64,000 nucleotides of DNA from Clostridiales bacterium (GCA_015055665.1 SVHX01000001.1:135365-199364); one strand, 5' to 3'; positions 7,739 to 62,322 are shown, numbered from the stretch's first letter. The notes: generated from the letters alone by a model not told the origin. Translations and numbers: made by a program.

Positions 7739-9271
7739 TCAACCCCAGTACTTACCATCTAGCGATCTATACGAAATTGCTTCGATAATATGGTCATCAA
7801 GAATATCAGCACTTCCTTCTAGGTCTGCAATAGTCCTCGCCACCTTAAGGATACGATTATATCCTCTAGCACTTAGATTCATTTTCTCAAAGGCATACCT
7901 AAGCATCTTATCGCTTTCGTAACTAATCTTACAATATTTCTTAATCTGTATATCGTTCATCTTAGCATTGGAATATATACCAGTCGACTCGTATCTACTA
8001 AGTTGAATTTCTCTTGCCTTATCAACTCGCGACTTGATACTCGCACTATCTTCTTCAAGTTCCGAACTATTAAGTTCATCATAAGTAACACTATCAACCT
8101 CAATATGCATATCAATTCTATCCATCAGAGGCCCAGATAATTTGTTAAGATACTTATGTATAGACGCTGGAGTACATTTGCACTCTTTTTCCTTTGACCC
8201 ATAATGACCACATGGGCAAGGATTCATACTTGCAATAAGTGTAAAATTAGCGGGATATTCTATAGAATTTTCCACACGAGCTACCCTTATTACGCCATCT
8301 TCGAGAGGTTGTCTTAACGCCTCAAGAGTATTTCTGTTGTATTCGGGCATCTCATCAAGGAATAATACTCCCGTATGGGCTAGACTAATCTCTCCAGGCT
8401 TTGCCTTATGTCCACCACCAGTAAGAGCAAGCATTGTTGTCGTATGATGAGGTGACCTAATAGGTCTATTATAAACAATACCTTCCTTACTATCTAGCAC
8501 ACCAGCAACACTATGAATCTTAGTAACTTCAAGGGATTCTTCAAATGTTAACTCTGGTAAGATACTAGGAAAACACTTGGCAAGCATAGTCTTGCCACTA
8601 CCAGGAGGGCCAATCATCAATACATTATGACCACCAGCCGCAGCAATCTCTAATGCACGTTTTGCATTAGCTTGTCCTCTAACATATTTAAAGTCATAAG
8701 AGCTTTTCTTTTTGGCTCTAATGGCATCATAGTCGGAGTGTTCGGTAGGCTTAATTTCGATATTTCCACTAACAAATTCAACGGCTTCTTTTAAGCTACT
8801 AACGCCGTATATTTCCATGCCTTCGATATAACTAGCTTCGTTACAATTGCCTTTAGGAATTATTACTTTCTTGTATCCTTCTTGCCTAGCAGAGATTAAG
8901 ATTGGAAGTACGCCATTAATCTTTCTAACACTTCCATCAAGACCAAGTTCTCCTAATATTATATAGTCATCCAAGCACTTTTCTGGCAACTGCTCACTAG
9001 CGTATAAAATACCAAGTGCAACAGGTAGATCATAGAGGGGGCCTTCTTTTTTGGTATCAGCAGGTGCTAGATTAACGGTAACTTTGACTATTGGATATTT
9101 CAAGGCACTATTCTTGATAGCGGATTTCACCCTTTCCTTACTTTCCTTCATGGAAGTACCTACGAGCCCTACAATATCATAACCAGGCAAACCACTAGAA
9201 ATATCAACCTCGCACTTAATAAGGTATCCACAAATACCAGTAAGACCATAACTTTTTACAATAGACAACAT
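7739..9271 (-). CDS. comM: YifB/ComM family Mg-chelatase-like ATPase
   Basis: Lon-protease-like N-domain plus AAA+ core (MIGPPGSGKTMLAK). Start moved to ATG 9271, which has a GGAGGAGG Shine-Dalgarno 8 nt upstream; the track ORF starts at 9322. Confidence 0.9.
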   Translation of the reverse strand: MLSIVKSYGLTGICGYLIKCEVDISSGLPGYDIVGLVGTSMKESKERVKSAIKNSALKYPIVKVTVNLAPADTKKEGPLYDLPVALGILYASEQLPEKCLDDYIILGELGLDGSVRKINGVLPILISARQEGYKKVIIPKGNCNEASYIEGMEIYGVSSLKEAVEFVSGNIEIKPTEHSDYDAIRAKKKSSYDFKYVRGQANAKRALEIAAAGGHNVLMIGPPGSGKTMLAKCFPSILPELTFEESLEVTKIHSVAGVLDSKEGIVYNRPIRSPHHTTTMLALTGGGHKAKPGEISLAHTGVLFLDEMPEYNRNTLEALRQPLEDGVIRVARVENSIEYPANFTLIASMNPCPCGHYGSKEKECKCTPASIHKYLNKLSGPLMDRIDMHIEVDSVTYDELNSSELEEDSASIKSRVDKAREIQLSRYESTGIYSNAKMNDIQIKKYCKISYESDKMLRYAFEKMNLSARGYNRILKVARTIADLEGSADILDDHIIEAISYRSLDGKYWG

Positions 9272-9485
9272 GGACAGAAACCTCCTCCTATATGTCACAC
9301 AATTACTTATCATTATAACCACAAAAAAAATTAATTACAACTATTTTTGCAAAATTTTAAGAAATTTTTTCAAGTAAGTTTCCTATTAAAATATTATTTA
9401 TATATTAATATATTATATAATATATATGTAAGTTTTATTGCGTAACAAAACGACAAATACTCCTATATTCCGCAATAAATTACAC

Positions 9486-9516
9486 AAAAAGTACCAAGAG
9501 AATTTCTCTCGGTACT
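9486..9516 (-). terminator. intrinsic terminator after thrS
   Basis: 12-bp stem (AGTACCAAGAGA/TCTCTCGGTACT, one mismatch) followed by T5 on the minus strand, 6 nt past the thrS stop. Confidence 0.6.
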
Positions 9517-9521
9517 TCTAA

Positions 9522-11288
9522 TTAACCAATTACCTTACTAGTAACTTCTTGCATAATATTTTTAATAAATTCATCTAAAGCTATAGATCCTTGATCGCCT
9601 ACAAATCTCTTACGAACAGCAACACTTCCACTAGCTGCCTCGTTATCTCCTACAATAACCGAATAAGGAACTTTCTCTAGCTGAGCATCTCTTATTTTCT
9701 TACCAATCTTCTCGTTACGATCATCAAGTTCTACACGTAGACCATAAGACTCTAACTTTTCTTTTACGGATCTTGCATATTCAAGATGAGCATCAGCAAT
9801 ATTAAGAATCTTAACCTGAGTAGGTGCAAGCCATGTTGGGAACGCTCCAGCATACTTCTCAATTAAATAAGCAAGTGTACGCTCATAACAACCAATACTT
9901 GTTCTATGTATAATATATGGAGTCTTCTTAGCACCATCTTTGTCGGTATATTCCATACCAAATTTCTCAGCAAGCAATTGATCTATTTGGATTGTAATTA
10001 GAGTATCTTCCTTACCCCAGACATTTCTAATCTGAATATCTAGTTTAGGTCCATAGAAAGCAGCCTCTCCAATACCAATTGTGTATGGAATTTCGAGCTT
10101 ATCTAGTATCTTACCCATAATATCTTGAGCTTCTGCCCACTGCTCATCAGTACCAATGTACTTATCTCTGTTGTTAGGATCCCACTGCGAGAATCTATAA
10201 GACGCATCCTCATACAACCCAAGAGTCTTAAGCATATAAATTGCAAGCTCAAGACAATTCTTAAATTCGTCCTCAAGCTGTTCAGGAGTACACATTAAGT
10301 GTCCTTCGGATATTGTAAACTGTCTAACCCTTATAAGACCATGCATCTCACCGCTAGCTTCGTTACGGAAGAGTGTTGATGTTTCGTTATATCTTAAAGG
10401 TAAATCCTTATAAGAACGAGCTTCGTTAAGATATGCCTGATACTGGAACGGACAAGTCATAGGACGAAGAGCAAATACTTCCTTATCCTTGGCTTCATCA
10501 CCAAGAACAAACATACCGTCCTTATAGTGATCCCAGTGACCACTAATCTTATAAAGATCACTTTTTGCCATAAATGGAGTTTTGGTTAATAACCAGCCCC
10601 TCTTTTGCTCCTCATCCTCAACAAATCTTTGCAAAAGCTGAATAATTCTAGCACCCTTAGGAAGAAGAATAGGCAATCCTTGACCAATCGAATCAACAGT
10701 AGTAAAGATTCCTAGCTCACGACCAAGCTTGTTGTGATCACGCTTCATAGCCTCTTCCATTGCATTAATATACTTTTTTAGCTCGCTTTTATCAAGAAAA
10801 CCATAAACATATACCCTTTGCAACATTTTATTCTTCTCGCTTCCTCTCCAGTAAGCACCACTAACTCTATTAATCTTGTATGCAAAACCTCTCAAGAACT
10901 TAGTGTTCTCCACGTGAGGGCCCCTACATAGATCTACAAAGTCATCACCCAAATAATATATAGAGATAGTTTCATCTTGAGGCAATTCATTAATCAACTC
11001 AATCTTGTATGGCTCCGACTTAAACATACTAAGAGCCTCTTCTTTAGATATCTCCTTACGAACAAAGTCTTCATTTCTCTCAATGATTTCCTTCATCTTA
11101 TTCTCAATTGCGTCAAAGTCTTCATTAGTTATAGACCTGTCCACATCAAAATCATAATAGAATCCATTATCAATAGCTGGACCAATAGCAAGTTTCACAC
11201 TAGCCCCAAACAATTCCTTAATTGCCTTAGCAAGTACATGACTCATACTATGACGATACATCATTTGCTTTTCATTAATTTCACTCAT
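9522..11288 (-). CDS. thrS: threonine--tRNA ligase (short form without the N-terminal TGS domain)
   Basis: 588 aa from ATG 11288 (AAAGGAG upstream). It begins directly with the editing-domain motif HSMSHVLAKAI...GFYYDFD, then a class-II catalytic core and an anticodon-binding domain. Preceded by a T-box. Confidence 0.95.
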   Translation of the reverse strand: MSEINEKQMMYRHSMSHVLAKAIKELFGASVKLAIGPAIDNGFYYDFDVDRSITNEDFDAIENKMKEIIERNEDFVRKEISKEEALSMFKSEPYKIELINELPQDETISIYYLGDDFVDLCRGPHVENTKFLRGFAYKINRVSGAYWRGSEKNKMLQRVYVYGFLDKSELKKYINAMEEAMKRDHNKLGRELGIFTTVDSIGQGLPILLPKGARIIQLLQRFVEDEEQKRGWLLTKTPFMAKSDLYKISGHWDHYKDGMFVLGDEAKDKEVFALRPMTCPFQYQAYLNEARSYKDLPLRYNETSTLFRNEASGEMHGLIRVRQFTISEGHLMCTPEQLEDEFKNCLELAIYMLKTLGLYEDASYRFSQWDPNNRDKYIGTDEQWAEAQDIMGKILDKLEIPYTIGIGEAAFYGPKLDIQIRNVWGKEDTLITIQIDQLLAEKFGMEYTDKDGAKKTPYIIHRTSIGCYERTLAYLIEKYAGAFPTWLAPTQVKILNIADAHLEYARSVKEKLESYGLRVELDDRNEKIGKKIRDAQLEKVPYSVIVGDNEAASGSVAVRKRFVGDQGSIALDEFIKNIMQEVTSKVIG

Positions 11289-12960: not shown

Positions 12961-14183
12961 ATGTCCTCCTTTATAGCAATACTAATATCCTTGCTTATAA
13001 TAGCCTTGTCTATCGCAATTGATTCCATCTCACTTGGATTAATAGCCAAGAACCTTTTTGACTTTACTATTTCTCCTGCAGAATATATTACAATACTGCC
13101 ATTAACATATTTTTTATTTACCCTAAAGTAGATTTCTAGTTCGCCTGTCTTATTATCATAATAGGTACTTGGAACAGTATACCTAATACCATTGCCGGCA
13201 TAAACATTATATTCTTGACCTCGATTAAGACCCTTAGTAGCAAGCATCCCAGCATTACGCCCAGCTGTAGAACTTTCTACAGTAACATTATCAACTAAAT
13301 CATGTACGTGCAAAACATTACCACAAGCAAAAACACCTTCGCTTATTTCTCGATATTCGTTAACAACTAGCCCACCAGTACGCTTATCTATATTTGGCCT
13401 AGTAAGCACATCATATTCTGGCTGAAGCCCGACAGAGAGCACCAATAAATCACAATCTAAATACTTTTCCGTTCCATCTACAATATTCATATTGCTATCA
13501 ACAGACGCGAATTTCACACCCTTAATTCTAACCGTACCAACAACTTCAGTTATTGTTGTATTATATTGTATAGGTATATTATAATCCTCTAGGCACTGCC
13601 TAATATTTCTAGCAAGCCCACTTGATGTTGAGTTCACTTCTAATACCTGCAAGACCTTAGCCCCCTCATAGGTTAATCGTCTTGCCATGATAAGGCCAAT
13701 ATCTCCACTACCCAATATAACTACTCTTTTACCAGGCAATTTACCATAGAAATTAACAAGTTTCTGAACTTGCCCAGCAGTCATGACACCGGCAGGCCTT
13801 GTGCCACACAATTTTATATTACCAGCAGTTCTTTCTCTACATCCCATTGCAAGTATTATGGCCTTAGGCTCAATTGTTTCTGCCCCTGCTGGACTAATTA
13901 TAGATATTTTTTTGCCATCAATTTTTGTTACAAAAGTATTAAGCATAACATCTATATTAGATTTACTTACAAGTTCTACGAATCTATAAGCATACTCTGG
14001 GCCAGTTAATTCTTCTTTAAAGTAATGTAATCCAAACCCATTATGAATACATTGATTAAGAATTCCTCCTAATCTATTATCTCTTTCAATTATTAGTGTC
14101 TTTGCTCCAGTTTCAGCACTAGCAAGTGCGGCACCCATGCCAGCAGGGCCACCACCAATTACTACTACATCATATTGTTTCAT
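12957..14183 (-). CDS. NAD(P)/FAD-dependent pyridine-nucleotide-disulfide-type oxidoreductase
   Basis: 408 aa. Two dinucleotide folds ([14 protein letters not shown] and [11 protein letters not shown]). Start and stop overlap its neighbours. Confidence 0.8.
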
Positions 14184-18739: not shown

Positions 18740-18914
18740 CTCTTGTCTTGCTTATATTCTATCACAAAATATTTTTTTTGCAAAAAAATTTGTATATGAT
18801 ATTTCTTATTCAAGATTAAATTGTTAAATTAACATTATTTGGAACAATATAATATATAATATTAATTGTTAACGATATGTATAGTCAAAATAATATTAAG
18901 AAATTTAACACAAA

Positions 18915-18946
18915 TACTTTACTTAACGAAATTAATGTGTTATAAT
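18915..18946 (+). promoter_or_regulatory. candidate promoter of the tRNA-Cys/tRNA-Leu unit
   Basis: Extended -10 TGTTATAAT (TATAAT at 18941-18946) with TTTACT-like -35 about 17 nt upstream. It lies 18 nt before tRNA-Cys. Confidence 0.5.
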
Positions 18947-18964
18947 GATTTTGTTCTTAAGTAC

Positions 18965-19039
18965 GGCACCATAGCCAAGTGGTAAGGCCCGGGTCTGCAA
19001 AACCCTCATGCCTCAGTTCGAATCTGAGTGGTGCCTCCA
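18965..19039 (+). tRNA. tRNA-Cys (GCA), CCA encoded
   Basis: Hand-folded. Acceptor GGCACCA/TGGTGCC, anticodon loop CTGCAAA, T-arm CTCAG-TTCGAAT-CTGAG, 3' TCCA. Confidence 0.9.
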
Positions 19040-19046
19040 ATATAAA

Positions 19047-19076
19047 TAGTAGCCTATCCTGTAAGATAGGCTACTA
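19047..19076 (+). other. 12-bp perfect hairpin between tRNA-Cys and tRNA-Leu (no T-run)
   Basis: TAGTAGCCTATC-ctgtaa-GATAGGCTACTA. Confidence 0.6.
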
Positions 19077-19084
19077 ATATATTC

Positions 19085-19171
19085 GCTGGTGTGGCGAAAT
19101 CGGCAGACGCACAGGACTTAAAATCCTGCGGAGTAACATCCGTACCAGTTCAAGTCTGGTCACCAGCACCA
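19085..19171 (+). tRNA. tRNA-Leu (TAA), long variable arm, CCA encoded
   Basis: Acceptor GCTGGTG/CACCAGC, anticodon stem CAGGA/TCCTG with loop CTTAAAA, T-loop TTCAAGT, 87 nt. Confidence 0.9.
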
Positions 19172-19517
19172 CATAAAGCAAACGTTCTGTTTGCTTTTTT
19201 GTTGCTTTGTGCATAGACTTTATGTACTTACGTACATTGCGAGCTTTGCTCGCGAACTGGTACTCGTACCTGTATTGGCTTTCAGCCAAACTTGCAATTT
19301 ATTCCCAGAATCATTGCTGCGCCATGTCTGGTCACCAGCACCACATAAAGCAAACGTTCTGTTTGCTTTTTTTGTTGCTTTGTGCATAGACTTTATGTAC
19401 TTACGTACATTGCGAGCTTTGCTCGCGAACTGGTACTCGTACCTGTATTGGCTTTCAGCCAAACTTGCAATTTATTCCCAGAATTATTGCTGCGCCAAGT
19501 CTGGTCACCAGCAGCCA
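19154..19517 (+). repeat. tandem 172/173-bp repeat (2 full units plus a terminal 19-nt copy), each unit bounded by the last 18 nt of tRNA-Leu
   Basis: GTCTGGTCACCAGCACCA occurs at 19154, at 19326, and with one extra G at 19499. The sequence between copies is near identical. Each unit has a terminator (AAGCAAAC-GTTCT-GTTTGCTT plus T6/T7) followed by 4-5 short perfect hairpins. Confidence 0.9.
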
Positions 19518-19559
19518 ACTAACCTTACAACAACTAACTAATTATTTCAAAAAACAGTA

Positions 19560-19588
19560 TTGACATCATTAACGCACAATGTTAAAAT
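19560..19588 (+). promoter_or_regulatory. sigma-A-type promoter of orphan paralog 1
   Basis: TTGACA (19560-19565), 17 nt, then TGTTAAAAT (TAAAAT at 19583-19588). Confidence 0.6.
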
Positions 19589-19625
19589 ATTGTTACAAAT
19601 AAATTTCTTTAGGGGTTAATAAATT

Positions 19626-20168
19626 ATGCAAGACAACAGAAAGAAATATATAGATTTTTTGGCAAAACGCAAGAAGAATTGTTACCAATTTATTACAGAT
19701 ACATTACTTAATGAGGAATCTCAAGACAACCTTAGTGTTCAATATAAAAACTGGAACACAGATGTTAGCAGCGCATCAATTCATTTCGATTTCAAAGTAT
19801 TCAATACATCTAAGCATTTTGGCAGAATAGCTAATGGATTTGCAATTCTTAATGCTTTTAGTTGTGATATTGGGATGACATCTTATGACAAGATTGAATC
19901 ATTTACAGAACATATCCGCAAAGAATATGGACAATTTATATATAATTTAATCAAAGAGGCAGAATCACAAGGAGCTACAACTCTAAGTAGCAAACAATAT
20001 TTAGAGGACTATAACGATTTCCACCGCTTTGTTCGTGACTCGAAAGTCACCTCAGCTCAGAAAGAGTTCAAAGAAAAATACGAAAAAATTGCTAAAGATT
20101 ATTCAGATATTAAATTATCTGCAGATGCTCCTGCTGACGAAAACAACGCCAGAGAATCTACTTTATAG
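19626..20168 (+). CDS. hypothetical protein, orphan paralog 1
   Basis: 180 aa with an AGGGG RBS. Clearly paralogous to the next gene: YIDFLAKRKKNCYQFITDTLL vs YIRFLDDNKLKCKKFIAETIL, and EYGQFIYNLIKEAESQGATTLSSKQY vs EFGTFVYNLIKSDQDKGETELNSEQY. I recognise no family. Confidence 0.7.
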   Translation: MQDNRKKYIDFLAKRKKNCYQFITDTLLNEESQDNLSVQYKNWNTDVSSASIHFDFKVFNTSKHFGRIANGFAILNAFSCDIGMTSYDKIESFTEHIRKEYGQFIYNLIKEAESQGATTLSSKQYLEDYNDFHRFVRDSKVTSAQKEFKEKYEKIAKDYSDIKLSADAPADENNARESTL

Positions 20169-20186
20169 AATAGTAGATTCTTTTTC
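20153..20186 (+). terminator. intrinsic terminator overlapping the stop of paralog 1
   Basis: AGAATCTACT-N9-AGTAGATTCT followed by TTTTT. Confidence 0.65.
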
Positions 20187-20210
20187 TATAAACATTTTTT
20201 AAGAAGGGTA

Positions 20211-20239
20211 TTTACAACCGCTATAACTTATGCTATACT
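20211..20239 (+). promoter_or_regulatory. sigma-A-type promoter of orphan paralog 2
   Basis: TTTACA (20211-20216), 17 nt, then TATACT (20234-20239). A GGGAGGGA RBS precedes ATG 20277. Confidence 0.55.
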
Positions 20240-20276
20240 ACATGTACTTACATAATTATGGGAGGGACATAACACA

Positions 20277-20822
20277 ATGGAACATAGTAAGGATTATGAG
20301 CAATACATTAGATTTTTGGATGACAATAAACTTAAATGCAAGAAATTTATAGCAGAAACAATATTAGAAAACAGACCGAATAATAATCGCAAGGTGTTAT
20401 TTAGCAATTGGTCTACTAACCACAACTTAACAGACATTGCATTTGAATTTAAGATTGTTGACAATAATTACCATAGGATATCGTGTGGTTTTGGCTGTTT
20501 TACCCCAGTAGAACTTCAATTAATTTTTAGAGATGGTGATGGACCACTAACAAAGAAAGTTTATTGCTACGATAAAGAATTTGGCACTTTTGTGTACAAC
20601 CTTATTAAAAGTGATCAAGACAAGGGAGAAACAGAGCTAAATAGCGAACAATACAGAAGATTGTACAACAAAATTCAAGACGAATATTATATTAAATTAG
20701 CAGAAGAAGCAAGACAAGATTTTGAGAAAAAACTACAAGGAATTTCTTTGCGTCGTGCAAATGCTTATTTATTCCCTGATGGTCTAGAATCTCCATTTGG
20801 TCCAGAATTAAGTGATAATTGA
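20277..20822 (+). CDS. hypothetical protein, orphan paralog 2
   Basis: 181 aa with a strong RBS. Paralog of 19626-20168. Confidence 0.7.
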   Translation: MEHSKDYEQYIRFLDDNKLKCKKFIAETILENRPNNNRKVLFSNWSTNHNLTDIAFEFKIVDNNYHRISCGFGCFTPVELQLIFRDGDGPLTKKVYCYDKEFGTFVYNLIKSDQDKGETELNSEQYRRLYNKIQDEYYIKLAEEARQDFEKKLQGISLRRANAYLFPDGLESPFGPELSDN

Positions 20823-20886
20823 TATAATCCATATATGATAATGAATAAATATTAGACAACTTGTATCATTATACAATGTATTGCAT

Positions 20887-20920
20887 AAAAATAACTCACA
20901 ATATATGTGAGTTATTTTTT
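20887..20920. terminator. bidirectional terminator between paralog 2 and the acyltransferase gene
   Basis: ATAACTCACA-atata-TGTGAGTTAT flanked by an A-run and a T-run. Confidence 0.65.
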
Positions 20921-20924
20921 ATAA

Positions 20925-21677
20925 TCATATCCCCTTCTCACTCTCAACAAGCTCCTCTTCTTGTTCAAAAGAGAGTTTGCCAAGTTCATTACATCTATCA
21001 CATAGCTGTTGAGATATTTCTTCCTTGGTGAGCCCCTTAGAAAATAATTCAGAAAGCATAATAGGTTTATCTATAACATAAGTTCTAGTTGACTTCTGAT
21101 AATAAGCCACATAGATTGGAACATCCATATCCTTCTTCTGACACATATTACAAAGCAATGTAAAACCAGCATGAAAGCCCTCTAACTCATCAAGATAACC
21201 CTTGGACGAATCTTCTGGGAATATTATAATATTCTGATTATCTTCAAGTGCTGCAAGGCTTTCGTTAAGAGTAGTCCTTAATTTGCCTCCACGATATACA
21301 GGAATAAGTCTTAACCCTCTATAGAATATAAATGTTAGAGGAGTAGCAAGAAGACAGAATAATCTAGCTGCGAATAAATTCCAATGTTTCTTCTCATGAT
21401 AATATACTCTTGTCTGATATTTATATAGAGTAAATATATTAGAATTCATCTCATACGCACCCCAGAACCTTATGTTTTTGCAAGGACCGTATAACTCAAA
21501 CGCTAGAGGAGCAGATGTTCCTACATGATTACTAAGAATTATTCCTCTATCTCCAAGCTCCTCACCTAGGAAAACAAACTTACTCTTCTTAATAAATATC
21601 CGCATAATCTTTTTTAGACCCCTAAACCACGCCTTACGATAATGCTTAGGCTTATCTGTTCTTACATTTTTTGCCAT
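20925..21677 (-). CDS. lysophospholipid (PlsC-type) acyltransferase family protein
   Basis: About 250 aa from ATG 21677 (GAGGTG RBS; the track ORF starts at 21704). Has an NHVGTSAP-type HX4D-like region and FPEDSSKGY (FPEG-like box) typical of glycerolipid acyltransferases. Confidence 0.6.
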   Translation of the reverse strand: MAKNVRTDKPKHYRKAWFRGLKKIMRIFIKKSKFVFLGEELGDRGIILSNHVGTSAPLAFELYGPCKNIRFWGAYEMNSNIFTLYKYQTRVYYHEKKHWNLFAARLFCLLATPLTFIFYRGLRLIPVYRGGKLRTTLNESLAALEDNQNIIIFPEDSSKGYLDELEGFHAGFTLLCNMCQKKDMDVPIYVAYYQKSTRTYVIDKPIMLSELFSKGLTKEEISQQLCDRCNELGKLSFEQEEELVESEKGI

Positions 21678-21946
21678 AACCACAACACCTCGAATTAAAT
21701 ACACTAAATTACTAACAACATATATAGAATTACTATATACTTTATTGTAACATAGTTCGATAAAAAATCAAATAAAAGTACACTAAATTATATGATTGCA
21801 ATTAAGAATTAATAATATCAATGTAAAAATTGATGCTAGACAAACAAAGATATCTTTTTGAATAATTAAATCAACCTATATACATGACAGCCTTACAAAG
21901 CACATCAACCTAACAGTCAAACGCAAAATATAAATTTTAATTTAAT

Positions 21947-22258
21947 ATCACGCCAAGTGATGCGAACGCCCTCGCGCTTCGCACGAGTACACGCGTCGCG
22001 AGTTCCTATGTGATAACATAGACATTACGTAGTAATGGGAATCTCGTCTGCAAGCCACAAAAAAAAGCACCATACGGTGCTTAATTATTGGAGCGGAAAA
22101 CAGATTCGGTGCCGAGCATCACACCAAGTGATGCGAACGCCCTCGTGCCCCGCACGAGTACACGCGTCGCGAGTTCCTATGTGATAACATAGACATTACA
22201 TAGTAATGGGAATCTCGTCTGCAAGCTACAAAAAAAGCACCATACGGTGCTTAATTAT
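21947..22258 (-). repeat. tandem 170/171-bp repeat (2 units) directly downstream of tRNA-Gly; unit 1 ends with a degenerate copy of the tRNA-Gly 3' end
   Basis: TGGAGCGGAA (complement of the tRNA 3' end) occurs at 22259 and again at 22089, extended by a degenerate T-arm copy. Each unit, read on the minus strand, has terminator AAGCACC-GTAT-GGTGCTT plus T7/T8 and then a hairpin chain. I see about 6 substitutions and 1 indel between the units. Confidence 0.9.
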
Positions 22259-22333
22259 TGGAGCGGAAGACGAGATTCGAACTCGCGACATTCGCCTTGG
22301 CAAGGCGACGCTCTACCACTGAGCCACTCCCGC
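22259..22333 (-). tRNA. tRNA-Gly (GCC), CCA encoded
   Basis: Minus strand GCGGGAG..CTTGCCAAG..GCGAGTTCGAATCTCGT CTTCCGC T CCA. The cloverleaf folds by hand. Confidence 0.9.
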
Positions 22334-22398
22334 AAATTTAGGCTTAATAAGCCTCGTGTTATAGGAACTATTAAATCAACATGGTTAATTTAATAAAA

Positions 22399-22474
22399 TG
22401 GTGGGAGTTATAGGGCTCGAACCTATGACCTCCTGCTTGTAAGGCAGATGCTCTCCCAGCTGAGCTAAACTCCC
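22399..22474 (-). tRNA. tRNA-Val (TAC), CCA encoded
   Basis: Minus strand GGGAGTT TA GCTC AGCTGGGA GAGC .. CTTACAA .. ATAGG TTCGAGC CCTAT AACTCCC A CCA. Confidence 0.9.
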
Positions 22475-22508
22475 ACACTGCTTCGTACTTCCTATTTAGT
22501 ACTTTATT

Positions 22509-22537
22509 AATATACCAAATATTTTAGAATTTTGCAA
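22509..22537 (-). promoter_or_regulatory. sigma-A-type promoter of the tRNA-Val/tRNA-Gly unit
   Basis: Minus strand TTGCAA (22532-22537), 17 nt, then TATATT (22509-22514). It lies about 35 nt upstream of tRNA-Val. Confidence 0.55.
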
Positions 22538-22742
22538 CCCTTTTTTGCAACTTTTTTAAAAATTTTTTAATATTTTTAATTACAATATTATTTAAACACG
22601 CAATACACGCTTAATTTAGGCTTTTTACAAACATAACATACAAATAAAAAACCTTAAAAATTAAATTGTATAATGGTAAAGTCTATATATAATATCATAC
22701 AAAACAATTTTTAAGGTTAATCAAAATGTGAAACTAGGCTAA

Positions 22743-61970: not shown

Positions 61971-61987
61971 TTTTAATAAAATACATT

Positions 61988-62322
61988 AGAATACACATAA
62001 GCCGAGTTCTGTTATAAATGATTATCTATCTAGCACTGTTGTCACCAACAATTTCAAGCGGTGTAAACAAGAAGCCTGCGAGTAACAGTTAAGCCTCTTA
62101 ACCTTGCATCGGATGGGGTTTACACAATCACATAGTCACCCATGTAATTAATAGTATCTTACACTATTATTCCACCTATCGCATTAGAATTAACCAATGC
62201 TGTTTCTTTTCTGTTGCACTTTCCTTAGGGTCGCCCCCAGTAGCCGTTAACTACCATCCTACTCTATGATGCTCGGACTTTCCTCACGCGACAATGTCGC
62301 CCGCAATCATTTGTATATCTAA
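61988..62322 (-). ncRNA. rnpB: RNase P RNA
   Basis: The minus strand contains GAGGAAAGTCCGAGC (P4 5' strand), AGGAAAGTGCAACAGAAA (CR-II) and ACAGAACTCGGCTTAT (P4 3' strand). P2 pairing is AAATGATT/AATCATTT. The ends are approximate, within about 10 nt. Confidence 0.88.

Follow-up and report, generated by a model that had tools for sequence, protein, structure and literature searches.

Tandem repeat units behind two tRNA genes of an uncultured Clostridiales bacterium share the design of the E. coli TLRs

The 64,000-nucleotide stretch of DNA analysed here (SVHX01000001.1:135365-199364; referred to as the window) is ordinary chromosome from the metagenome-assembled genome (MAG) of an uncultured Clostridiales bacterium, with 35% G+C. 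It contains two tandem arrays of structured repeat units, each directly behind a tRNA gene: array A at 19172-19516 on the plus strand, behind tRNA-Leu, and array B at 22258-21947 on the minus strand, behind tRNA-Gly. With moderate confidence, we interpret the units as structured read-through RNAs similar to the tRNA-linked repeats (TLRs) of E. coli, belonging to a family in Clostridia that is unrelated to TLRs in sequence. An initial annotation of the window had known of no described family with this design, but the E. coli TLRs and the RtT RNA have it, as seen from both the literature (PMC8144298) and our own sequence check: the arrays are a new, sequence-unrelated family of a known, unexplained kind and not a categorically new system.

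Both arrays start 1 nt past the CCA of the host tRNA and on the same strand as the tRNA, and the same is true for the related loci L013, L031 and L034 described below. Tandem Repeats Finder identified array A at 19151-19513 (period 173, 2.1 copies, 97% matches) and array B at 21947-22279 (period 171, 1.9 copies, 94% matches), and a separate repeat search returned unit spacings of 172/173 and 170/171, confirming the unit lengths and the copy number of about two that had been proposed initially. The rest of the 64-kb window has no other copy of unit A or B. The two hosts, tRNA-Leu(taa) (19085-19171, plus strand) and tRNA-Gly(gcc) (22259-22333, minus strand), are each the last tRNA of their operon; tRNA-Cys(gca) (18965-19039, plus strand) and tRNA-Val(tac) (22399-22474, minus strand), which opens the Val-Gly unit, have no repeat behind them (all four tRNAs were identified by both ARAGORN and Rfam).

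All units share one order of parts. A spacer of 4-6 nt is followed by a terminator hairpin with a T-run, a degenerate antisense copy of tRNA positions 76-57 and two 6-bp hairpins (hp1 and hp2, 33 nt together); the middle part consists of an exact antisense copy of tRNA positions 56-46, a loop of 2-4 nt and a modified sense copy of positions 46-54; the 3' end has two more hairpins (hp3 and hp4), the motif GC(R)CC and a sense copy of tRNA positions 57-76. When each unit is compared with its own tRNA, four segments per unit derive from tRNA positions 46-76. The order of tRNA end, spacer, terminator, hairpins and tRNA-end copy had been recognised before and holds, including the observation that the tRNA-end copy closes three of the four units, the fourth (B2) being truncated.

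Unit A1 (19172-19343, plus strand, 172 nt) has the spacer CAT, the terminator hairpin at 19175-19197 with its T-run, the degenerate antisense of tRNA 76-57 at 19200-19220 (with just 6 nt exact, AGACTT), hp1 at 19222-19237, hp2 at 19239-19253, the exact antisense of tRNA 56-47 (GAACTGGTAC) at 19254-19263, the modified sense copy CGTACCTGT at 19265-19273, hp3 at 19275-19289, hp4 at 19294-19317, TGCGCC at 19318-19323 and the tail copy at 19324-19343. Unit A2 (19344-19516, plus strand, 173 nt) is 98-99% identical to A1; the CCA end of its tail copy is decayed (CAGCAGCC). In unit B1 (22089-22258, minus strand, 170 nt), the spacer is followed by the terminator hairpin at 22252-22235 with its T-run, the antisense of tRNA 76-57 at 22230-22210 (exact for positions 67-57, AGACGAGATTC), hp1 at 22208-22194, hp2 at 22192-22177, the exact antisense of tRNA 56-46 (GAACTCGCGAC) at 22176-22166, the modified sense copy GCGTGT at 22165-22160, hp3 at 22158-22142, hp4 at 22134-22116, TCGGCACC at 22115-22108 and the tail copy at 22107-22089. 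Unit B2 (21947-22088, minus strand, about 141 nt) ends within hp4 and has no tRNA-tail copy; array ends are ragged.

The terminator-like sites of the four units (19175-19197, 19347-19369, 22252-22235 and 22082-22065) all lie on the tRNA strand: hairpin and T-run are kept in every unit and on that strand only. No promoter-like site was found inside the units. The terminal tail copy corresponds to the last 18-20 nt of the host tRNA and begins at T-loop position 56/57 in all unit types; the number of exactly matching nucleotides is 18 in A1, 16 in C, 14 in D, 13 in E and 10 plus 7 more in B1 (17/20 with one gap; unit types other than A and B are from relatives). In array A, the two 32-nt arms around the terminator loop, consisting of tRNA tail, spacer and terminator arm, mirror each other without indel. 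Across the terminator, possible alternative partners for the antisense of the tail are the tRNA and the tail of the preceding unit. Mechanical open reading frames traverse array A (116 amino acids at 19191-19541 on the plus strand and 80 amino acids at 19220-19462 on the minus strand); coding is unlikely, as the unit length of 172/173 is not a multiple of three and the frame shifts from unit to unit.

In RNAfold predictions, units A1, B1 and C1 share a closing helix (helix I), in which the internal antisense pairs with the tail copy at the unit's end and which encloses a multibranch of hairpins. Helix II consists of the antisense of positions 56-46 and the modified sense copy, with a U-U mismatch at the same spot in A, H, B, C and D. 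At 19254-19280 and 22176-22155, as well as in C, D and H, helix II is flanked 5' by GAA and 3' by (U)GUA(Y)U, and GAA opposite AGUA presumably resembles the loop-E/bulged-G consensus. Changes between units of the same array include one double compensatory change (in hp2, E1 versus E2) and three changes to G-U.

Relatives were found by scanning a genome collection for the split antisense of tRNA-Gly (11 nt, N25-45, 11 nt), and syntenic loci were obtained via homologues of FakA. The scan found Clostridiales bacterium UBA11490 (L008), and a metagenome match, L013, is of the same species: here, an array of 2.7 units, each 250 nt long, lies behind tRNA-Val and tRNA-Gly; the parts come in the same order, but the hairpins differ. 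About 250 bases of L008 (2879-3136), the first unit after tRNA-Gly, are masked as N and are readable in L013. A second match of the scan, L009, is a chance overlap with tRNA-Pro in a Myxococcota MAG. A generic pattern of the family matched 20 loci in metagenome contigs, 19 of which have no tRNA and are chance matches, leaving L013 as the only real one; there were no matches in viral contigs. Metagenome contigs with proteins identical to those of the window (L001-L007) are of the same strain and have no variation. The FakA route gave the following layouts: L031 (FakA identity 92%) has the order Val-Gly, 3.1 units of 175 nt, two unrelated genes, a promoter, Cys-Leu and 2.3 units of 165 nt; L034 (90%) has Val-Gly, 2.4 units of 183 nt, the promoter, Cys-Leu and one 173-nt unit, with no intervening genes; L033, L035, L037 and L038-40 (72-76%) have a compact Val-Gly-Cys-Leu operon with a plain terminator after Leu.

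Thus, four related metagenome genomes have the same architecture behind the same two tRNAs, with completely different stem sequences and with copy numbers between 1 and 3.1, and units are found behind the operon-terminal tRNAs Gly and Leu only, never behind Val or Cys. The set used to assess constraint comprised seven unit types from five genomes. Alignment of the Gly-type units with MAFFT and RNAalifold misaligned the hairpins because of their turned-over sequences, which made the pair counts unusable; an explicit finder of perfect stems was therefore run on each unit. The terminator, hp1 and hp2 are at equivalent positions in 7/7 types, as perfect stems of 5-9 bp with unrelated sequences; hp3 and hp4 were found in most types (hp3 was missed in E1 and H1, hp4 in C1). 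The cognate antisense segments are exact over 8-11 nt at the same unit positions in most of the seven types, while shuffled sequences reach 7-10 nt at most and non-cognate tRNA controls 4-7 nt. At least one of the two antisense segments exceeds the shuffled maximum in 6/7 types: in A1 this is the right segment only, and in E1 it is neither. DNA identity of the flanking genes is only about 70-80% across the relatives, so that neutral sequence should be randomised; that the scaffold is kept argues for selection or recurrent templating.

Do the Leu-type and the Gly-type units belong to one family? The initial annotation had proposed one element family matched to different tRNAs, and this is borne out by the common architecture, the edits, the motifs and the backbones of L034. 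Both types carry identical edits in the modified sense copy, namely A52 to T and an inserted A, giving TGTAYT; both also have non-tRNA motifs in common (GCRCC ahead of the tail copy and the T-run followed by GTNGCTT), and all four tRNA-derived segments match the cognate tRNA. Plain sequence similarity between A and B is modest: the global alignment score is 38, compared with 18.6 +/- 5.8 for shuffled sequences, with 7/1000 shuffles reaching the observed score, and the local score is reached by 29/1000 shuffles. The check by pairwise alignment that had been suggested therefore comes out above most shuffles, but kinship of A and B is much clearer from architecture and relatives than from plain sequence. 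The best support for one family on different tRNAs comes from L034, where the 3' halves of the Gly-type and the Leu-type unit are nearly identical (score 39, z about 12), a score that tops every between-genome pair of the same tRNA type except B-D (z about 9). This near-identity suggests that paralogous units exchange or share backbones while their tRNA-derived parts differ.

Two sequence blocks that had been taken as shared elements are explained by this anatomy. The block TTTTTTGT(T/A)GCTT is present in A1, A2 and B1, but B2 reads GTGGCTT; it is the T-run of the terminator joined to the antisense of ...GC(A/T)CCA that carries changes from G to T. The discontinuous block CTCGCGA-N4/5-GTACTCGT does occur four times, in the arrays only, with 0 occurrences expected from shuffled sequences, but it is not a single recombinase core: CTCGCGA is a hairpin arm in A and a tRNA-antisense segment in B, and GTACTCGT is the modified sense copy of the T-arm that carries the two edits in both the Leu-type and the Gly-type.

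The comparison with relatives also indicates how the locus may have evolved. The tRNA-Cys/tRNA-Leu transcription unit has a promoter-like site, TTTACT-17-TATAAT (18918-18946, plus strand); this promoter is also present in L034 and L031 and absent in the outgroups, where the gap between Gly and Cys is 29-49 nt. We conclude that the arrays are a derived trait of a genus-level clade and that they have split an ancestral four-tRNA operon, with Cys-Leu gaining a new promoter. In L033, tRNA-Leu is directly followed by a single full-length but decayed pseudo-tRNA-Leu and a duplicated terminator (13542-13653), an arrangement that is a possible ancestral state of the repeat family. Compared with L031, L034 and every outgroup, the window has the block of promoter, Cys-Leu and array A inverted between collinear outer flanks; the two orphan genes described below were probably inverted along with it. 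In L037, the entire Val-Gly-Cys-Leu operon (9080-9610) is inverted relative to FakA, suggesting that the tRNA locus is prone to inversion in several lineages. A different type of repeat is present between tRNA-Val and tRNA-Gly in some relatives: tandem units of 64-66 nt, with two in L008 (3191-3337), one in L013 (4167-4235) and 2.2 in L034 (11973-12116) and none in the window. Each consists of the upstream spacer and a pseudo-copy of the 5' part of tRNA-Gly, from position 1 to about 45, in which the D-loop is altered; the boundary at about 45|46 complements the segment 46-76 used by the 3' units.

If the units are TLR-like read-through RNAs, a polymerase that passes the tRNA terminator would transcribe the unit and halt at the next terminator. 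The unit RNA would fold as an independent domain via the tRNA-derived helices I and II, with four further hairpins branching off, and its tRNA-like 3' end could be trimmed by the tRNA 3'-processing machinery, resulting in a discrete RNA of about 140-170 nt. The terminators in series would insulate the downstream genes. Array copy number could shift by unequal crossing-over or slippage between tail copies and units, and the family probably originated from a tandem duplicate of tRNA and terminator, as in L033.

Several points weigh against this interpretation. Observed directly are the anatomy, the conserved architecture, the match to the cognate tRNA, the phylogenetic distribution and the equivalence of design with RtT; transcription by read-through, processing and a cellular role are what we infer from sequence. 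Both strands fold equally well, with about 5% G-U pairs on each, and wobble can therefore not name the functional strand; the structure signal is strand-neutral and would also fit a role at the DNA level. Helix I is poorly paired near the CCA, so that an acceptor-stem mimic is not established, and a self-contained helix II does not explain why the exact sequence of the host tRNA is retained. The RtT model of Rfam (RF00391) has no match in the window even at E<=10 and none in L013, L031 and L034 at the gathering threshold, while the positive control, L030 of E. coli, has four matches with 133-138 bits. The TLR of E. coli rrnB has no internal antisense of its 5S-end copy, indicating that the closing-helix design is not universal among TLRs. 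Moreover, the role of TLRs is itself unexplained: the tRNA-linked ones have no known function (PMC8144298).

The arrays may instead be non-functional by-products, decaying tandem duplicates of the tRNA 3' part and terminator that are mutational and not selected, with template switching at hairpins making or perfecting the palindromes and unequal crossing-over amplifying them. The plain pseudo-tRNA-Leu with duplicated terminator in L033 is what such a process would start from, and the nearly always perfect Watson-Crick stems, the like folding of both strands, the mirrored 32 nt of array A and the ragged ends are all in line with it. We nevertheless consider this possible but unlikely, because the ordered hairpins, the exact antisense and the motifs GCRCC, TGTAYT and GGCGTTCGC persist in four genomes with saturated neutral sites, because T-runs are retained on one strand only, because Leu-type and Gly-type units carry identical edits and because E. 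coli has the same design independently. Distinctly unlikely is that a unit is an att-like footprint or miniature form of an integrative element that targets tRNA genes. A tyrosine recombinase acting in trans would have inserted it at the T-loop, or it would have entered as a folded single strand in the manner of the CTX-phage attP or the integron attC; the insertion would restore the tRNA tail and bring terminator and cargo. This reading would account for the start of the tail copies at T-loop position 56/57 in both tRNAs, for sense and antisense copies that can rebuild a duplex of the tRNA gene from 46 to 76, branching at the crossover point, for the variable DNA downstream of the arrays (three genes here, two in L031, none in L034) and for the new Cys-Leu promoter that comes with the insertion. 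However, neither the islet between the arrays nor its flanks encode a recombinase domain, the cargo has no tRNA fragment at its distal end, phage and plasmid records contain nothing similar, viral contigs gave no match, and the point where hp1 and hp2 are inserted into the antisense T-loop shifts (after ACTT in A, before ACTT in E, after ACTTGAA in H); identical tandem units are also explained more simply by unequal crossing-over.

A further idea, which we regard as improbable, is an active templated process that copies a stretch of about 31 nt from the host tRNA (46-76), in sense as well as antisense and with stereotyped edits, into a shared backbone; as improbable, taken jointly with it, is the product this implies, a small self-propagating, tRNA-programmed element in the form of a folded single-strand att site or an RNA-templated copy. 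Within tRNA operons, such an element would give rise to new terminators, promoters and sites of gene insertion, and the near-identical Gly and Leu backbones of L034 as well as the independent occurrence in E. coli would be its traces. The split 11+11-nt complement of the T-arm, with two hairpins at the split, could also be read as a trans-acting antisense or guide RNA that pairs with the tRNA or its gene and directs cleavage, modification, repair or recombination at the T-loop (in this it would resemble bridge RNAs, H/ACA guides or splints). Units B, C, D and G do retain 8-11 nt of exact complementarity to tRNA-Gly on each side within changed surroundings, and A and H likewise to tRNA-Leu. This reading is nevertheless very improbable. 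Each half already has a partner within the unit, the left one in the tail copy and the right one in the modified sense copy, and none of the five genomes has an effector gene linked to the units. In A, the left half has degenerated to 6 nt; the split point varies, and pairing would need the mature tRNA to be unfolded. Finally, the arrays had been described as imperfect inverted repeats that bracket a 2.4-kb islet, and their inverted orientation on either side of 19517-21946 would suit the terminal repeats of a mobile element. In L031 and L034 the orientation of the arrays is direct, and the islet is replaced or absent; the inverted orientation is unique to this genome and arose when the Cys-Leu block was inverted. 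The two arms have little sequence in common and one islet gene, encoding 259 amino acids, belongs to a widespread conserved family, all of which makes the mobile islet extremely improbable. The proposed test of the islet in relatives points the same way, as the arrays stay with the tRNAs while L034 has no islet and L031 has unrelated genes. The bracketed islet is thus the result of an inversion and of gene gain beside the arrays, and is not transposon-like.

The three genes between the arrays are the following. Orphan gene 1 (19626-20168, plus strand, 180 amino acids) is not part of the repeat family and has its own promoter-like site downstream of array A (TTGACA-17-TAAAAT, TG-extended; 19560-19588, plus strand); among 5.8 billion proteins, it has no homologue but itself. 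Orphan gene 2 (20277-20822, plus strand, 181 amino acids) is its paralogue (30% identity, E=8e-22), as had been recognised. A perfect 14-bp inverted repeat at 20887-20919, between the convergent genes, is a likely bidirectional terminator. The third gene (20925-21704, minus strand) encodes a conserved protein of 250-259 amino acids from a widespread family without Pfam assignment; since the database homologues have 250 amino acids, its start is probably at 21677. The original label of this protein as PlsC-type acyltransferase is weak: of 1706 homologues (E<=0.001), most are named hypothetical and one is named acyltransferase, and the comparison with TIGR00530 gave E=0.19. It is a conserved unknown and not an orphan, with a PlsC-like acyltransferase as a weak possibility. 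Searches with the islet proteins in Pfam, NCBIfam, PHROGs, PADLOC and PDB returned nothing significant. The cargo between the arrays differs between genomes, with three genes here, two unrelated ones in L031 and none in L034. No recombinase or integrase domain was found in the islet and flanking proteins, nor among the called genes of L031 and L034, and copies of the tRNA end (up to 3 mismatches) are present in tRNAs and arrays only; on the far side of the cargo there is none, neither in the window nor in L031.

The wider gene context is RNase P RNA (bacterial class A, 61982-62322, minus strand, 234 bits), PriA-Def-Fmt-RsmB-RlmN-RsgA-Rpe and the FakA neighbourhood. The spacer between tRNA-Cys and tRNA-Leu (19047-19076) is filled by a near-perfect 13-bp palindrome (TAGTAGCCTATC...GATAGGCTACTA) which is terminator-like on the minus strand only.

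Among known systems, several share single features with the arrays. Rfam searches (whole window at the gathering threshold; 18900-22600 at E<=10) returned tRNAs and RNase P only, the sub-threshold small RNA (sRNA) matches being noise, and BLAST found no match of either array in phage or plasmid collections. A split hammerhead and H/ACA or C/D guide RNAs were rejected as their catalytic or box motifs are absent by eye, and IS110 bridge RNA and group IIC introns as there is no recombinase or reverse transcriptase and no Rfam intron domain. A tandem tRNA pseudogene describes only unit F of L033 (z 4.7 in a full-length alignment), a plausible ancestor; tRNA pseudogenes, unlike the units, would contain no antisense copies, and units A, B, C, D, E and H have no similarity to tRNA positions 1-45 (z -0.6 to 1.0; A1 0.2, B1 -0.6), with G1 having a 10-nt sense match at positions 40-49 only (z 3.8). 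The T-loop is said, by Williams in 2002, to be the classical sublocation of T-loop integrases, and a repeat that begins in a symmetric tRNA loop (T-loop or anticodon loop), a feature of integrative elements, is found at position 56/57 in all unit types. Att remnants of tRNA-targeting integrative elements are partial tRNA genes (PMC9897764). Like attL/attR remnants, the arrays have direct repeats of the tRNA 3' end from the T-loop on, a restored tRNA gene and variable downstream DNA; unlike them, the units are 165-250 bp long, tandem-identical and internally structured, and, unlike att islands, they come without an integrase, a distal repeat around the cargo or homology to mobile elements. The sRNAs derived from tRNA trailers, such as 3'ETS-leuZ (cited in PMC8144298), would resemble the units as functional RNAs released from the trailer at the 3' end of a tRNA operon, but 3'ETS, a short and single trailer, works as a sponge for sRNAs and has no tRNA-end copy, array or internal terminator.

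The closest design is that of the E. coli TLRs, known since 1978: 22 units at ten loci, with 1-5 units per locus and an 18-19 bp 3' end identical to the upstream tRNA or rRNA (PMC8144298, which also summarises the work of Egan and Landy in 1978 and Rudd in 1999 on TLRs and tyrT repeats). An earlier claim of a role in the stringent response was retracted (PMC8144298), and in the literature that we searched the term TLR is rare in this sense and set in E. coli. The tyrT-tyrV locus (L030) is annotated with rttR (RtT RNA) and tpr; its 178-bp units end in the last 19 nt of tRNA-Tyr, from the T-loop on, and contain GGGGAAGGAT, antisense to the 3' strand of the T-stem and the start of the acceptor strand, GAAGCTTCGA, one mismatch off the antisense of the 5' strand of the T-stem, and the sense sequence AAGGTTCGA. 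RtT folds with the same closing helix as A1, B1 and C1. Like TLRs, the Clostridial units are directly behind the tRNA in the same orientation and operon, are tandem units of about 170-180 nt with 1-5 per locus (2.1 and 1.9 here, 1 to 3.1 in relatives) and end in a tail copy from the T-loop that corresponds to the 18-19 bp of TLRs, with loci matched to different host RNAs; like the tyrT units, they have an internal antisense of T-stem and acceptor strand that closes the fold. Unlike TLRs, every Clostridial unit has its own intrinsic terminator, there is no tpr-like open reading frame, two hairpins interrupt the antisense copy and T-arm sequence forms a second helix; the hosts, uncultured Clostridia, are of a different phylum, and there is no similarity by sequence or covariance model. 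Three TLRs linked to 5S rRNA (rrA, rrB and rrF) lie between dual terminators T1 and T2 and give read-through transcripts that are processed (PMC8144298): as in the Clostridial units, a stable-RNA gene is followed by terminator 1, a structured RNA, a copy of the 3' end and terminator 2, while the 5S rRNA host, the single unit and the binding of Hfq and CsrA via GGA motifs are features of rrA, rrB and rrF that set them apart (PMC8144298).

The locus of the window and its relatives show a compact tRNA operon that was split by such modules, gained a promoter and became a site of gene insertion and inversion. Several lineages with the same scaffold and fully turned-over stems provide comparative material that E. 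coli does not offer. Tail copies starting at the T-loop, an internal complement, bounding by terminators and tandem copies make up the common design, and finding it in unrelated Clostridia speaks for a design that is selected for or recurs for mechanical reasons, and against an accident of enterobacteria.

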